From Escherichia coli (GTDB taxonomy: Bacteria > Pseudomonadota > Gammaproteobacteria > Enterobacterales > Enterobacteriaceae), in assembly GCF_003334305.1 (NCBI RefSeq), contig NZ_QOWS01000002.1: a stretch of 64,000 nt of DNA; one strand, written 5' to 3'. Position numbers and translations under genes: made by a program. Shown piece after piece: positions 6,604-41,076 of the stretch. Each line of letters opens with the position of its first letter. Within the stretch, counting starts at the first letter, position 1. A model generated the notes under the pieces. It was not told the origin of the DNA. It did no database searches and worked only from the letters and a program-made list of their open reading frames with translations.

Positions 6604-7079
6604 AATGCTCTCCTGATAATGTTAAACTTTTTTAGTAAATCATCTGCTCGAATACGAGAGTATAGTCAGTGCGGTGATGATTTGCTTAACCTATGAAAAT
6701 CAAAAGCTTACTCGCGCTCACACTCACTGTGATTTACTAAAAGAGTTTAAACATTAGAGTTATTATCTCTAATGCGTCACTTCCAGGTGGCGTAAGCAAG
6801 ATTACTCACTTCTGGGTACTGATTACGTGATCCAAATCAAATTTTTGCAAAGCTGACACCTTTCAGCATCGCTTTTCGCCATTATAGCTAACAGTTAATA
6901 AATTGTAGTATGATTTGGTGGCTACATTAGCATGTTTTGCACAACTAGATAACAATAACGAATGATAGCAATTTTAAGTAGTTAGGAGGTGAAAAATGCT
7001 GTCAAAAGGCGTATTGTCAGCGCGTCTTTTCAACCTTATTTATGGCTAACATTATCCGGCTTTTGCTTCGGAGCTAACC

Positions 7080-7727
7080 GTGATTCAGACCTTTTTTGAT
7101 TTTCCCGTTTACTTCAAATTTTTCATCGGGTTATTTGCGCTGGTCAACCCGGTAGGGATTATTCCCGTCTTTATCAGCATGACCAGTTATCAGACAGCGG
7201 CAGCGCGAAACAAAACTAACCTTACAGCCAACCTGTCTGTGGCCATTATCTTGTGGATCTCGCTTTTTCTCGGCGACACGATTCTGCAACTTTTTGGTAT
7301 ATCAATTGATTCGTTCCGTATCGCCGGGGGCATCCTGGTGGTGACGATAGCGATGTCGATGATCAGCGGCAAGCTTGGCGAGGATAAACAGAACAAGCAA
7401 GAAAAATCAGAAACCGCGGTACGTGAAAGCATTGGTGTGGTGCCATTGGCGTTGCCGTTGATGGCGGGGCCAGGGGCGATCAGTTCTACCATCGTCTGGG
7501 GTACGCGTTATCACAGCATTAGCTATCTGTTTGGTTTCTTTGTGGCTATTGCATTGTTCGCTTTATGTTGCTGGGGATTGTTCCGCATGGCACCGTGGCT
7601 GGTACGGGTTTTACGCCAGACCGGCATCAACGTGATTACGCGTATTATGGGGCTATTGCTGATGGCATTGGGGATTGAATTTATCGTTACTGGTATTAAG
7701 GGGATTTTCCCCGGCCTGCTTAATTAA
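7080..7727 (+). CDS. ychE: MarC-family inner membrane protein
   Basis: 215 aa hydrophobic multi-TM ORF with GTG start; position between adhE and oppA as in E. coli. Confidence 0.85.
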   Translation: MIQTFFDFPVYFKFFIGLFALVNPVGIIPVFISMTSYQTAAARNKTNLTANLSVAIILWISLFLGDTILQLFGISIDSFRIAGGILVVTIAMSMISGKLGEDKQNKQEKSETAVRESIGVVPLALPLMAGPGAISSTIVWGTRYHSISYLFGFFVAIALFALCCWGLFRMAPWLVRVLRQTGINVITRIMGLLLMALGIEFIVTGIKGIFPGLLN

Positions 7728-8464
7728 TTCCTTTCAAATGAAACGGAGCTGCCATGCTCCGTTTACTTCGTCATTATTTTTACTTTGTTCCCGCGCAGTT
7801 ATCAAAAGCAAAAGGAATAGGTAAAAATATTCTTCTCAAATTACAGTTAGTTATAAGGATTTCCTTAACTGCTTCTCCTCACCATCATGTTATTTTCGCC
7901 ACATCATAATCCTGGGCTTGCTGAAGAATAATTGAAATGATATTAGTAATTCCACTGCCTTTGGTAGAGGAAAGTGCTAAATAATAATCAATTGTTAAAT
8001 TATTGTGCATTTCACTACTGGAACTGTAATCAGAAAAGATAGACATGCTTAGCCAATCTCTATTTGATTGAATTGAAAGATGTTTGTTAAGGCATGGATG
8101 CAAGCTATAGATTCTGATACGGTCAATAAAAGAGAATTGCTTAACAATTTTGCAAAATGTATTGGCGAGTAAGAACCGCATTTGGTACTTTCCGGGCAAC
8201 CGCCAGACGATTATTTATTGGTAATGAGAATAATTAACAATTAAAGAGCGTCGCGAAAGAATAATGTGTCTCGACAGGGGAGACACAGTACGAATCGACA
8301 TAAGGTGATCGTCTGAATCACCAGAATAAATAAAGTCGGTGATAGTAATACGTAACGATAAAGTAACCTGACAGCAGAAAGTCTCCGAGCCTGTGCAGGG
8401 TCCCAATCCGGGATTACACATGCTGGTTAATACCAGTAATTATAATGAGGGAGTCCAAAAAACA

Positions 8465-10096
8465 ATGACCAACATCACCAAGAGAAGTTTAGTAGCAGCT
8501 GGCGTTCTGGCTGCGCTAATGGCAGGGAATGTCGCGCTGGCAGCTGATGTACCCGCAGGCGTCACACTGGCGGAAAAACAAACACTGGTACGTAACAATG
8601 GTTCAGAAGTTCAGTCATTAGATCCGCACAAAATTGAAGGTGTTCCGGAGTCTAATATCAGCCGAGACCTGTTTGAAGGCTTACTGGTCAGCGATCTTGA
8701 CGGTCATCCAGCACCTGGCGTCGCTGAATCCTGGGATAATAAAGACGCGAAAGTCTGGACCTTCCATTTGCGTAAAGATGCGAAATGGTCTGATGGCACG
8801 CCAGTCACAGCACAAGACTTTGTGTATAGCTGGCAACGTTCTGTTGATCCGAACACTGCTTCTCCGTATGCCAGTTATCTGCAATATGGGCATATCGCCG
8901 GTATTGATGAAATTCTTGAAGGGAAAAAACCGATTACCGATCTCGGCGTGAAAGCTATTGATGATCACACATTAGAAGTCACCTTAAGTGAACCCGTTCC
9001 GTACTTCTATAAATTACTTGTTCACCCATCAACTTCACCGGTGCCAAAAGCCGCTATCGAGAAATTCGGCGAAAAATGGACCCAGCCTGGTAATATCGTC
9101 ACCAACGGTGCCTATACCTTAAAAGATTGGGTCGTAAACGAACGAATCGTTCTTGAACGCAGCCCGACCTACTGGAACAACGCGAAAACCGTTATTAACC
9201 AGGTAACCTATTTGCCTATTGCTTCTGAAGTTACCGATGTCAACCGCTACCGTAGTGGTGAAATCGACATGACTTATAACAACATGCCGATCGAATTGTT
9301 CCAGAAGCTGAAAAAAGAGATCCCGGACGAAGTTCACGTTGATCCATACCTGTGCACTTACTATTACGAAATTAACAACCAGAAACCGCCATTCAACGAT
9401 GTGCGTGTGCGTACCGCACTGAAACTAGGTATGGACCGCGATATCATTGTTAATAAAGTGAAAGCGCAGGGCGACATGCCCGCCTATGGTTACACTCCAC
9501 CGTATACTGATGGCGCAAAATTGACTCAGCCGGAATGGTTTGGTTGGAGCCAGGAAAAACGTAACGAAGAAGCGAAAAAACTGCTGGCTGAAGCGGGTTA
9601 TACCGCAGACAAACCGTTGACCATCAACCTGTTGTATAACACCTCCGATCTGCATAAAAAGCTGGCGATTGCTGCCTCTTCATTGTGGAAGAAAAACATT
9701 GGTGTAAACGTCAAACTGGTTAACCAGGAGTGGAAAACGTTCCTCGACACCCGTCACCAGGGTACTTTTGATGTGGCCCGTGCAGGCTGGTGTGCTGACT
9801 ACAACGAACCAACTTCCTTCCTGAACACCATGCTTTCGAACAGCTCGATGAATACCGCGCATTATAAGAGCCCGGCCTTTGACAGCATTATGGCGGAAAC
9901 GCTGAAAGTGACTGACGAGGCGCAGCGCACAGCTCTGTACACTAAAGCAGAACAACAGCTGGATAAGGATTCGGCCATTGTTCCTGTTTATTACTACGTG
10001 AATGCGCGTCTGGTGAAACCGTGGGTTGGTGGCTATACCGGCAAAGATCCGCTGGATAATACCTATACCCGGAATATGTACATTGTGAAGCACTAA
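8465..10096 (+). CDS. oppA: Periplasmic oligopeptide-binding protein OppA (precursor)
   Basis: ORF trimmed to MTNITKRSLVAAGVLAALMAGNVALA signal peptide (543 aa); family 5 substrate-binding protein; first gene of an oppABCDF cluster. Confidence 0.93.
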   Translation: MTNITKRSLVAAGVLAALMAGNVALAADVPAGVTLAEKQTLVRNNGSEVQSLDPHKIEGVPESNISRDLFEGLLVSDLDGHPAPGVAESWDNKDAKVWTFHLRKDAKWSDGTPVTAQDFVYSWQRSVDPNTASPYASYLQYGHIAGIDEILEGKKPITDLGVKAIDDHTLEVTLSEPVPYFYKLLVHPSTSPVPKAAIEKFGEKWTQPGNIVTNGAYTLKDWVVNERIVLERSPTYWNNAKTVINQVTYLPIASEVTDVNRYRSGEIDMTYNNMPIELFQKLKKEIPDEVHVDPYLCTYYYEINNQKPPFNDVRVRTALKLGMDRDIIVNKVKAQGDMPAYGYTPPYTDGAKLTQPEWFGWSQEKRNEEAKKLLAEAGYTADKPLTINLLYNTSDLHKKLAIAASSLWKKNIGVNVKLVNQEWKTFLDTRHQGTFDVARAGWCADYNEPTSFLNTMLSNSSMNTAHYKSPAFDSIMAETLKVTDEAQRTALYTKAEQQLDKDSAIVPVYYYVNARLVKPWVGGYTGKDPLDNTYTRNMYIVKH

Positions 10097-30228: not shown

Positions 30229-30250
30229 TGTTATTCTCTAATTTTGTTCA

Positions 30251-30280
30251 AAAAAAAGCCCGCTCATTAGGCGGGCTGGG
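30251..30280 (-). promoter_or_regulatory. trp attenuator terminator (3:4 hairpin plus U-run)
   Basis: Plus strand aaaaaaagcccgctcattaggcgggct, i.e. on the transcript agcccgccuaaugagcgggcuuuuuuu, between trpL and trpE. Confidence 0.95.
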
Positions 30281-30319
30281 TATCTGATTGCTTTACGCAT
30301 GGTGAATACACTGCCCGTT

Positions 30320-30364
30320 TCAGGAAGTGCGCCACCAACCTTTCAGTACGAAAATTGCTTTCAT
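30320..30364 (-). CDS. trpL: trp operon leader peptide (14 aa, tandem Trp codons)
   Basis: Reverse complement reads atgaaagcaattttcgtactgaaaggttggtggcgcacttcctga = [14 protein letters not shown]. Confidence 0.95.
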
Positions 30365-40704: not shown

Positions 40705-41076
40705 TTATCATCATTCTTATTACCCATTTTTAATGAATTAAAGGGCTTTTAATACACCGCAGCAATAACAGCTTGAGTTATCTCAACACAAAATAATAAC
40801 CGTTAAGGGTGTAGCCTATGATCAACACAAATATGAAATATTGGTCCTGGATGGGCGCGTTTTCTCTGTCGATGCTCTTCTGGGCCGAACTCCTCTGGAT
40901 CATTACTCACTGATCCTTGACCCCGCTGCGGCGGGGTTGTCATTTGCTTTGCCACAAGGTTTCTCCTCTTTTATCAATTTGGGTTGTTATCAAATCGTTA
41001 CGCGATGTTTGTGTTATCTTTAATATTCACCCTGAAGAGAATCAGTGCTTCGCAACCCTGTCATTAAGGAGGAGCT

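Follow-up and report, generated by a model that had tools for sequence, protein, structure and literature searches.

Multi-site Lrp/IHF nucleoprotein promoters are known, those of ilvIH and pap among them. ABC-transporter leaders described by Sharma et al. in 2007, such as that of dppA, are said to be repressed by GcvB and to carry C/A-rich R1 targets, and OppX of Salmonella is reportedly, after Matera et al. in 2022, a MicF sponge derived from a 5′ UTR. The closest described system is the oppA 5′ UTR of Escherichia coli K-12 (Carrier, Lalaouna and Masse 2023, PMC9988348), in which primer extension mapped two promoters, P1 (+1) and P2 (+246), upstream of a cleavage at +341 and a MicF site at +372 to +393. 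In that strain MicF acts in cis on oppA translation, GcvB acts at the translation initiation region, Hfq binds just upstream of the Shine-Dalgarno sequence (SD), and a stable oppA 5′ UTR fragment was not detected (PMC9988348). For Salmonella, the same article gives a leader processed into OppX-L, OppX-M and OppX-S (410, 190 and 109 nt). At the level of transcription, Lrp produces two ChIP peaks and represses oppA (PMC10127797; bioRxiv 10.1101/276808), an FNR ChIP peak is reported for this region in K-12, and Fur is listed as a repressor of oppA (PMC3688515).

We analyzed a 64,000-nucleotide stretch of E. coli DNA (the window), which 5,424 of 5,426 complete E. coli genomes match at 95% identity or more. 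Here ychE (7080-7727, + strand) ends at 7727 and the oppA ATG, placed from the PGAP annotation of identical sequence and from the reading frame, lies at 8465-8467; the flanking genes carry the ychE and oppA annotations, and the 737-bp spacer between them (7728-8464) precedes oppA on the oppA strand. Its GC content is 0.372, against 0.483 in ychE, 0.477 in oppA and 0.496 in the whole window, which bears out the AT-rich gap of about 740 bp described by the first-pass annotation. The species for comparison were drawn from close YchE relatives within the Enterobacteriaceae. Across 76 species the synteny is kept, with a ychE-oppA spacer of 664-878 bp and a GC content of 0.34-0.45, and the islands of identity across genera fall on P1, P2 and elements of the leader (Table 1). 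The spacer very probably controls the oppABCDF operon at both the transcriptional and the post-transcriptional level, and corresponds to the published two-promoter region with its long structured 5′ leader; an initial reading as promoter plus long regulated oppA 5′ UTR thus stands, P1 and P2 being mapped by published K-12 oligonucleotides. The control region and the leader are already known, and the comparative data on helices and spacing go beyond published work. At the upstream end of the spacer, the hairpin that follows ychE folds at -14.9 kcal/mol (z = -4.66; 0 of 200 shuffles as stable), and in alignments of other genera a hairpin of different stem sequence occupies the same position; transcription of ychE would stop there.

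Table 1. Elements of the ychE-oppA spacer in window coordinates; leader positions (+) follow the numbering of PMC9988348, mapped through its oligonucleotides.
Feature	Position	Strand	Description
ychE intrinsic-terminator hairpin	7741-7764	+	AAACGGAGC-TGCCAT-GCTCCGTTT, then T-rich tail
Antisense ORF	7885-8199	-	104 codons, TTG start; judged non-gene
Conserved upstream element	7888-7903	+	TGTTATTTTCGCCACA, -66 to -51 of P1; TGTTA-N6-TCACA in other genera; CRP-like
Promoter P1	7918-7954	+	Predicted -35 TTGCTG (7918-7923) and extended -10 TGaTATTAG (7938-7946); TSS A7954
P1-derived oppA 5′ leader	7954-8464	+	511 nt
Early-leader block	7962-8007	+	+9 to +54; deeply conserved; contains CTAA (7977-7980)
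Variable-sequence, fixed-length segment	8010-8127		Between P1 and P2 blocks
IHF-like motif	8061-8073		Midway between P1 and P2; TATTTGATTGAAT, 2 mismatches to YAANNNNTTGATW in this window
Promoter P2 region	8127-8199	+	Upstream block AAAAGAGAATTGCTTAACAATTTTGCAAAATGTATTGGCG; predicted -35 TTGGCG (8162-8167) and extended -10 TGgTACTTT (8183-8191); TSS ~A8199 (+246)
Fur-box-like sequence	8220-8238	+	GGTAATGAGAATAATTAAC, 15/19 to GATAATGATAATCATTATC; +22 to +40 of P2; within conserved GATGAGAATnATTTTCA block
Leader helix H1	8265-8287	+	TGTGTCTC / GAGACACA, loop GACAGGG; compensatory changes in 6/6 scored pairs (RNAalifold)
RNase E site stretch	8292-8299	+	Conserved single-stranded GAATCGAC; cleavage +341, ~8294
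Leader helix H2	8304-8322	+	GGTGATC / GAATCACC; 7 pairs, 5 changed on both sides, 95.5% of cells paired
MicF pairing site	8325-8346	+	+372 to +393, AATAAATAAAGTCGGTGATAGT; lead-acetate footprint in PMC9988348; ~120 nt upstream of AUG
A/U-rich putative translational enhancer	8352-8371	+	Stretch deleted in oppA-delta399, bounded by oligonucleotides EM5095/5096
Leader helix H3	8367-8399	+	CCTGACAG / CTGTGCAGG; 7 pairs, 5 changed on both sides, 96.2% paired
Leader helix H5	8422-8437	+	GCTGGT / ACCAGT, directly 5′ of AU-rich/SD region; 6 pairs, 2 changed on both sides, 95.6% paired
Invariant stretch and SD	8438-8453	+	AATTATAATGAG; SD GAGGGAG (8447-8453); columns invariant in 53 species
GcvB R1-complementary C/A-rich site	8455-8479	+	SD to codon 5, spanning ATG 8465-8467

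H-NS typically silences recently acquired islands. The first-pass annotation had suggested that the spacer might be H-NS-bound, and a GC content of 37% in surroundings of 50%, promoter-like hexamer pairs on both strands and the repeated landing of insertion sequences would all suit a spacer whose main character is that of a tract silenced by H-NS (a horizontal acquisition or a 'promoter island') and not that of a dedicated regulatory leader. The promoter-like pairs, however, are at chance level (4 found, 3.0 ± 1.7 expected), and the length, the order of the blocks and the promoters are conserved in the 76 Enterobacteriaceae species; a spacer kept so widely across the family is therefore not a lineage-specific acquisition. 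The retrievable literature on oppA documents Lrp, and also Fur and FNR, but not H-NS. With an ancient spacer whose layout is conserved family-wide, we consider the silenced tract improbable and the suggestion of H-NS binding not upheld.

The assignment of the two promoters to the window draws on the K-12 oligonucleotides of PMC9988348, which match it with 0-1 mismatch (EM5064 at 7921-7954, EM4528 at 8294-8315 and EM5095 flanking 8352-8371). The reverse oligonucleotide of the published P1 promoter fusion ends at 7954, and counting back from the +341 oligonucleotide gives the same +1. The P1 and P2 start sites are transferred from K-12 by exact matches of this kind; two sigma-70 promoters with extended -10 elements would start oppA, the stronger one (P1) at A7954 and P2 at about 8199. 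Invariant across the family are the P1 blocks CTTGCTG and GAAATGATATTAGT as well as TTTGnTACTTTCCGG in P2, where identity across genera reaches 0.88-0.92 (8128-8167). The K-12 locus is the same as that of the window and essentially identical in sequence, with P1, P2, the RNase E site, the MicF site, the enhancer, the SD and the GcvB region all present here at the expected spacing, and by this identity the K-12 effects of the promoters, RNase E, MicF, Hfq, GcvB and Lrp would carry over to the window. At 7946, the final position of the -10 hexamer of P1, K-12 alone has T (TATTAT); the window and every other species have G (TATTAG). Furthermore, reference strains carry lesions in this region: IS2 in W3110 and, in MG1655, an IS5 (IS5U) inserted into the leader at +24 to +27. 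The mapped junction of IS5U lies in the CTAA at 7977-7980 of the early-leader block, and the window is without it.

Around these promoters lie several candidate regulator sites. The columns of the element upstream of P1 are nearly invariant across the 76 species, and the element may be a CRP site; the window contains 26 matches to the CRP-like pattern as such, no more than the 29 expected by chance. The early-leader block, with an identity to other genera of 0.79-0.84, includes a weak Lrp-consensus-like 15-mer (7993-8007, 3 mismatches), and the Fur-box-like sequence downstream of P2 could bind Fur. Like the IHF-like motif discussed below, these CRP, Lrp and Fur motifs are predictions made from the DNA sequence. 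Following the K-12 literature, Lrp would occupy the region as two peaks and repress without leucine, with its sites placed at the level of the region.

The antisense ORF is the longest in the spacer. The first-pass annotation had described it as low-complexity and as the only one there; the frame does exist, but its entropy is 3.99 bits, with the S/I/L-rich composition expected of translated AT-rich DNA, and four further ORFs are present at 7754-7909 (+, 51 aa), 8215-8421 (-, 68 aa), 8049-8147 (-, 32 aa) and 8080-8172 (+, 30 aa). A frame of at least 104 aa arose in 2.2% of 2000 dinucleotide-preserving shuffles of the spacer (mean 62, standard deviation 17), so that its length is in the upper tail of chance and not compelling. 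Most of the roughly 5,400 complete E. coli genomes carry a PGAP annotation at 7885-8181, the hypothetical protein WP_001211521.1 (98 aa). This annotation, the length of the frame, its intactness in most sampled E. coli and a weak GGAA that precedes the ATG at 8181 by about 10 nt are what could be expected of a real, young, E. coli-specific gene at 7885-8181/8199, transcribed antisense to the oppA leader. Against such a gene, the PGAP calls differ between near-identical sequences (98 aa, 53 aa or none), and the frame is broken by stops or frameshifts in all five other Escherichia lineages examined and by a stop in E. coli strain 149. Insertion sequences interrupt it in MG1655 and NCTC122, and laboratory strains with such insertions are viable. 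In the two most divergent comparisons, substitutions by codon position were 9/3/8 and 4/4/1, a small count without third-position excess that gives a pN/pS of about 0.9-1.4; three closer E. coli comparisons gave about 0.1-0.5 from only 4-6 substitutions each. The GC content at codon positions 1/2/3 is flat (0.33/0.35/0.34, versus 0.54/0.39/0.51 in oppA). Searches of Pfam, NCBIfam and PHROG gave no match; 51 hits among 5.8 billion sequences included none beyond the Escherichia/Shigella locus, and 22 hits among 1.84 billion representatives included none outside the same locus. No mention of three accessions of the antisense protein was found in the literature searched. The C-terminal third of the ORF looks conserved because the DNA there is promoter/operator sequence. 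The invariant part falls on P1 and the early-leader block, and in genera whose frame is closed these are conserved at every codon position. We therefore regard a real gene as exceedingly improbable and the ORF as almost certainly a false gene call over two promoters, which would amount to a chance frame across P1, the early leader and P2. Although RefSeq annotates WP_001211521.1, the comparative tests side with the earlier claim that the spacer contains no supported gene, and the frame breaks, flat GC and lack of outside homologues indicate that no protein gene was missed.

The 511-nt leader transcribed from P1 folds at -133.1 kcal/mol (z = -3.75). RNAalifold on 53 Enterobacteriaceae species identified 26 pairs in four helices, with compensatory changes in 18 of the pairs. 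In these helices 94.4% of the cells are paired, versus 30-42% with slid partners, and changes on both sides were counted in 187 cells compared with 62 ± 9 in shuffles, none of 500 shuffles reaching 187. The 3′ half of the leader is thus a structured RNA conserved across the family, with four covarying helices. The RNase E motif AATCGAC between H1 and H2 is at least 90% conserved, and the enhancer region is A-rich and varies in length among genera. RNase E would cut the P1 leader at about 8294, and the four hairpins would leave the RNase E site, the MicF site and the A/U-rich enhancer single-stranded. Rfam gave nothing in the spacer at gathering thresholds and, at E ≤10, only mir-399, C0299 and snoRNAs with chance scores. 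A conserved + strand upstream ORF (ATGAGAAT at 8225 or the ATG at 8263, frames of 6 and 14 codons) was rejected, the ATG or the frame being absent in other genera.

Of all positions in the leader, the MicF site forms the best duplex with MicF(1-33), at -21.4 kcal/mol, an energy that 12 of 200 shuffles also attained, and its core GTCGGTGATAG is invariant or nearly so in the 53 species; pairing of MicF there would raise oppA translation. The best GcvB R1 duplex (-23.1 kcal/mol) is formed at 8455-8479; no other 25-mer across the spacer and the initial 35 nt of the coding sequence is as rich in C/A (88%). The site, CAACACAATG...CATCAC, is nearly invariant, and the duplex energy alone does not exceed that of shuffled targets (55 of 200 shuffles). 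GcvB R1 would pair across the AUG at this position and repress translation. The first-pass annotation had named oppA as a GcvB target, which published work confirms (PMC9988348), and had pointed to a CA-rich site just upstream of the ribosome-binding site; the C/A-rich match is there, but it lies 3′ of the SD and spans the start codon. Like GcvB targets of the dppA type, oppA has a C/A-rich R1-complementary element in the translation initiation region; it differs in that the element extends 3′ of the SD into codons 1-5 and in that its leader is unusually long (511 nt), with a second, activating sRNA site.

The leader is also homologous to that of Salmonella OppX: Escherichia and Salmonella enterica loci share an invariant MicF site, and they keep H1, H2 and the RNase E motif, with covariation. 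The MicF site and helices H1/H2 shared with two S. enterica loci, the conserved AATCGAC and the OppX-L/M/S species given for Salmonella in PMC9988348 lend some weight to a leader that, in the present strain too, yields a stable OppX-type sRNA, released by RNase E and acting in trans as a MicF sponge. This is unlikely: stable OppX species are reported in Salmonella but undetected in K-12, where MicF acts in cis (PMC9988348), no Rfam family matches, and an intrinsic terminator is missing downstream of the MicF site in the leader. The first-pass annotation had also named a structured noncoding RNA inside the spacer as something that would contradict its reading; in a sense such an RNA is present in the four covarying helices and the invariant MicF site, but no stable fragment was detected in E. 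coli (PMC9988348).

Between the P1 and P2 blocks lies a segment that is variable in sequence and fixed in length. Its identity to other genera is approximately 0.25-0.35 and climbs locally to 0.52 at 8068-8087, adjoining the central motif; about 115 bp between the anchors have diverged almost to randomness. In 66 of 73 species the -10 anchors of P1 and P2 stand 254-257 bp apart, and in Escherichia the figure is 246-247 bp, while neighbouring intervals of the spacer vary by tens of bp; we found no earlier report of this fixed spacing. At 124-126 bp from the P1 anchor, about 35 of 70 non-Escherichia species have the IHF-like motif (WATCAANNNNTTR plus a flanking A/T tract) with no more than 1 mismatch, and 15 of 16 perfect matches to the IHF consensus occur at this position. 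The position matrix of the central motif reads tAw....tTGATw..AA...TTTT. A full FNR site, TTGAT-N4-ATCAA, was rejected as the conserved feature at the central motif, its second half-site not being conserved, although the K-12 ChIP peak of FNR lies nearby. The A/T periodicity of the variable segment peaks at a period of 10.25-10.5 bp, at 0.197, which is not above the permutation null (95th percentile 0.243).

A long rod-like hairpin over the initial 250 nt of the leader from P1, closed by 7967-7983 with 8180-8193 and suggested by the minimum free energy (MFE) fold of the window, was rejected as the cause of the length constraint, being unsupported outside Escherichia. On 46 species its helix is 79% paired, compared with 30-48% for slid partners, and no more than 2 pairs covary; when the homologous stretch was folded in 38 species the mean z was -0.9, with the 7967-7983/8180-8193 pairing in 4 of the 38 MFE structures. 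The rod may exist in Escherichia only. Tentatively, a higher-order architecture of DNA and protein might instead fix the distance between P1 and P2: a sharp central bend, made by IHF or a similar protein, would let two Lrp-bound blocks, corresponding to the two ChIP peaks, bridge into one repression loop over both promoters. The oppA region resembles ilvIH and pap in its two separated Lrp regions and in its rigidly spaced blocks, with a motif like a bend site at the midpoint; it differs in that matches to this motif are degenerate, with 2 mismatches in the window, and that Lrp/IHF footprints at oppA are absent from the retrievable literature.

The WP_001211521.1-type 'hypothetical protein' has been propagated through thousands of E. 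coli genomes and should not count as coding. For users of K-12, the insertions in the reference strains matter, as does the G-to-T change that K-12 alone has in the -10 hexamer of P1. If the fixed spacing does reflect an Lrp/IHF loop, this would explain why a spacer of about 740 bp is found in every genus and would provide a testable model of the leucine-responsive repression of oppA.

The window region is Escherichia coli chromosome, with positions 7600–8600 matched at ≥95% identity in 5,424 of 5,426 complete E. coli genomes. Between the end of ychE (7727) and the oppA ATG (8465–8467), both on the + strand, lies a spacer of 737 bp (7728–8464) with a GC content of 0.372, as compared with 0.483 for ychE, 0.477 for oppA, and 0.496 over the window as a whole. 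The spacer and an antisense ORF within it (7885–8199, − strand; 104 codons from a TTG) were found as the first-pass annotation had placed them. The ORF, described there as the only one and as low-complexity, is accompanied by further ORFs of at least 30 codons, and its entropy of 3.99 bits is not markedly low. A hairpin at 7741–7764 (folding energy −14.9 kcal/mol, z = −4.66) is the terminator of ychE. For a 17-codon ORF (MLSKGVLSARLFNLIYG) at 6996–7049 (+), 30 bp 5′ of ychE, the MG1655 annotation gives the small protein YchT (b4771), as does PGAP in other strains.

In K-12, two oppA promoters, P1 (+1) and P2 (+246), an RNase E site (+341), and the footprint of the sRNA MicF (+372 to +393) have been mapped by primer extension (Carrier et al. 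2023, PMC9988348). We transferred this numbering by matching the oligonucleotides of that study: the reverse primer used for the P1 promoter ends at A7954, and the delta399 deletion corresponds to loss of 8352–8371. P1 thus falls at 7954, giving a P1 leader of 511 nt, and P2 at ~8199; the RNase E site maps to ~8294 and MicF pairing to 8325–8346. Position 7946 is T in K-12 (MG1655 and the BW25113-derived JW5503) and G in the window, in every other sampled E. coli, and in all 76 other species. The T makes the P1 −10 hexamer TATTAT, closer to consensus than TATTAG, and may be a K-12-specific promoter-up change.

Features of the ychE–oppA spacer and of the wider window
Feature	Position	Strand	Basis
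P1–P2 spacing region	7934–8195		Loci L005–L084 of the ychE–oppA comparison
P1 hexamers: −35 TTGCTG, extended −10 TGaTATTAG		+	Inferred from sequence
P2 hexamers: −35 TTGGCG, extended −10 TGgTACTTT		+	Inferred from sequence
Helix H1	8265–8287	+	RNAalifold, 53 species
Helix H2	8304–8322	+	RNAalifold, 53 species
Helix H3	8367–8399	+	RNAalifold, 53 species
Helix H5	8422–8437	+	RNAalifold, 53 species
CRP-like TGTTA-N6-CCACA	7888–7903	+	Motif scan, weak
Lrp-consensus-like 15-mers, 3 mismatches each	7993–8007, 8150–8164, 8226–8240		Motif scan, weak
Fur-box-like 19-mer, 15/19, in conserved block just 3′ of P2 start	8220–8238	+	Motif scan, weak
Tryptophan operon leader	30250–30343	−	Rfam gathering-score match, 93 bits
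STnc180, enterobacterial sRNA	40745–40947	+	Rfam gathering-score match, 198 bits

In most E. coli genomes RefSeq/PGAP lists 7885–8181 as a hypothetical protein of 98 aa, so the coding status of the antisense ORF had to be put to the test. Its homologs are restricted to Escherichia/Shigella copies of the same locus, many of them truncated; an exhaustive HMMER search of 1.84 billion cluster representatives returned 22 proteins, all from this locus and all at ≥68% identity over the matched stretch, and the product has no Pfam, NCBIfam, or PHROG match. Stop codons or frameshifts break the frame in each of the five other Escherichia lineages that were recovered, E. coli strain 149 carries a premature stop, insertion sequences lie within the ORF in MG1655 (IS5U) and NCTC122 (ISSen4), and PGAP, given sequences a few bases apart, calls a protein of 98 aa, one of 53 aa, or none at all. 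Substitutions by codon position were 9/3/8 and 4/4/1 in the two most divergent comparisons (pN/pS ~0.9–1.4); pN/pS was ~0.1–0.5 in three closer E. coli comparisons, each with only 4–6 substitutions. GC at the three codon positions is flat (0.33/0.35/0.34), unlike in ychE and oppA, and the invariant C-terminal third overlaps P1 and the early leader, where DNA-level conservation extends to genera without any frame. The sole point in favor of a gene, in the form of a very young translated product, is the 104-codon length, equaled in only 2.2% of shuffles; we judge that reading very improbable, and the ORF is a chance reading frame. The earlier view of the spacer, a promoter and a long leader under regulation rather than an overlooked protein gene, is borne out, and the spacer is already known biology.

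Among 80 Enterobacteriaceae loci from a scan for YchE relatives, oppA follows ychE in 76, after 664–878 bp of DNA with 34–45% GC; a long spacer rich in AT thus goes back to the ancestor of the family and is no recent acquisition. Identity to the window clusters in islands at 7888–8007 (P1 and early leader), 8128–8187 (P2), 8268–8347, and 8368–8447, and is elsewhere mostly at the random level, including most of the middle of the antisense ORF. From an alignment of 53 species over the leader's 3′ half, RNAalifold predicted 26 pairs, 18 with compensatory double changes. With this structure fixed, 94.4% of cells pair, versus 30–42% when partners are slid by 1–3 columns, and double-change cells number 187 versus 62 ± 9 in shuffles (observed value reached by 0 of 500). 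The predicted structure leaves three nearly invariant elements single-stranded between helices, namely GAATCGAC (RNase E motif), the MicF site, and the AATTATAATGAG-SD stretch. Given these covarying helices and nearly invariant single-stranded elements, the leader is an RNA of conserved structure with a MicF site, a point that the first-pass annotation missed. Rfam has no family for the oppA leader. The Salmonella leader yields the OppX sponge, whereas E. coli K-12 showed no stable fragment (PMC9988348).

Using the MG1655 sRNA sequences, the best MicF(1–33) duplex in the leader coincides with the published site (−21.4 kcal/mol; equaled by 12 of 200 shuffles). The best duplex with R1 of the sRNA GcvB, expected earlier upstream of the RBS, lies instead 3′ of the SD (8447–8453), at 8455–8479 and reaching codon 5 of oppA (−23.1 kcal/mol), which is the 25-mer with the highest C/A content in the region (88%). 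Because R1 pairs promiscuously, this energy does not by itself reach significance (matched by 55 of 200 shuffles); what supports the site is that the stretch is nearly invariant across 53 species. GcvB has been placed at the translation initiation region, with Hfq just 5′ of the SD (PMC9988348).

The suggestion that H-NS binds the spacer found no backing, as no report of H-NS at the ychE–oppA locus was found in the literature searched; the documented binder is Lrp. oppA is listed as Fur-repressed, and an FNR ChIP peak is centered at U00096.2 position 1298775 (PMC3688515), by coordinate conversion ~431 bp upstream of the ATG, at ~8034. The weak Fur-, Lrp-, and CRP-like motif matches count as leads rather than findings.

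The spacer is also a recurrent insertion-sequence target. IS5U in MG1655 occupies CTAA 7977–7980, at +24 to +27 of the leader, and therefore separates P1 from oppA in that strain; ISSen4 in NCTC122 lies at ~8111–8117, and W3110 is reported to carry IS2 between ychE and oppA, by coordinate conversion near the P1 −10 hexamer (~7946). A contiguous match is absent in ~1.6% of complete genomes. Citrobacter-like or enterobacterial ychE–oppA regions occur in an uncultured Raoultella MAG (L020) and in a record titled Chryseobacterium sp. 18061 (L068), the latter label almost certainly reflecting contamination or a mislabeled assembly.

The P1 −10 anchor (GAAATGATATTAG) and the P2 −10 anchor (TTTGnTACTTTCCGG) lie 254–257 bp apart in 66 of 73 species, with 38 at exactly 255 bp, and 246–247 bp apart in the six Escherichia sequences. 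In the same genomes, the neighboring intervals span 195–291 bp (ychE stop to P1) and 115–173 bp (P2 to MicF site). Length variants of ±1 bp, not multiples of three, argue against coding. Over ~115 bp of the interval, sequence conservation is undetectable except for a short central motif. The composition profile of the interval is conserved (SD of A/T frequency across positions 0.20 versus 0.08 expected). The degenerate motif, YAANNNNTTGATW followed by AA...TTTT, has a fixed position 124–126 bp from the P1 anchor and 129–131 bp from the P2 anchor and matches the IHF core consensus on the opposite strand, with the A/T tract on the expected side. A perfect consensus occurs in 16 species, in 15 of them at the central position, where about half of 70 non-Escherichia species have at most one mismatch; a rough estimate from composition puts the chance expectation at ~1e-3 per position. 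The window counterpart, TATTTGATTGAAT at 8061–8073, has two mismatches and lies at the P1–P2 midpoint.

RNA structure was rejected as the cause of the fixed spacing: the long-range helix of the window MFE structure is weakly supported, recurring in 4 of 38 MFE structures, and across 38 species the corresponding RNA folds with no unusual stability (mean z = −0.9). In Escherichia, the early P1 leader (7967–7983) and the P2 −10 region (8180–8193) share 14 nt of perfect complementarity, with one apparent compensatory change (GGAAAG/CTTTCC to GAAAAG/CTTTTC) in three lineages; the pairing is not kept in most other genera. The leading conjecture for the spacing, though held to be less likely than not, is that Lrp bridges P1 and P2 with the help of a DNA bend; no report of such a bridge was found in the literature searched. 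The fixed P1–P2 spacing is the only part of the finding that might repay an experiment.
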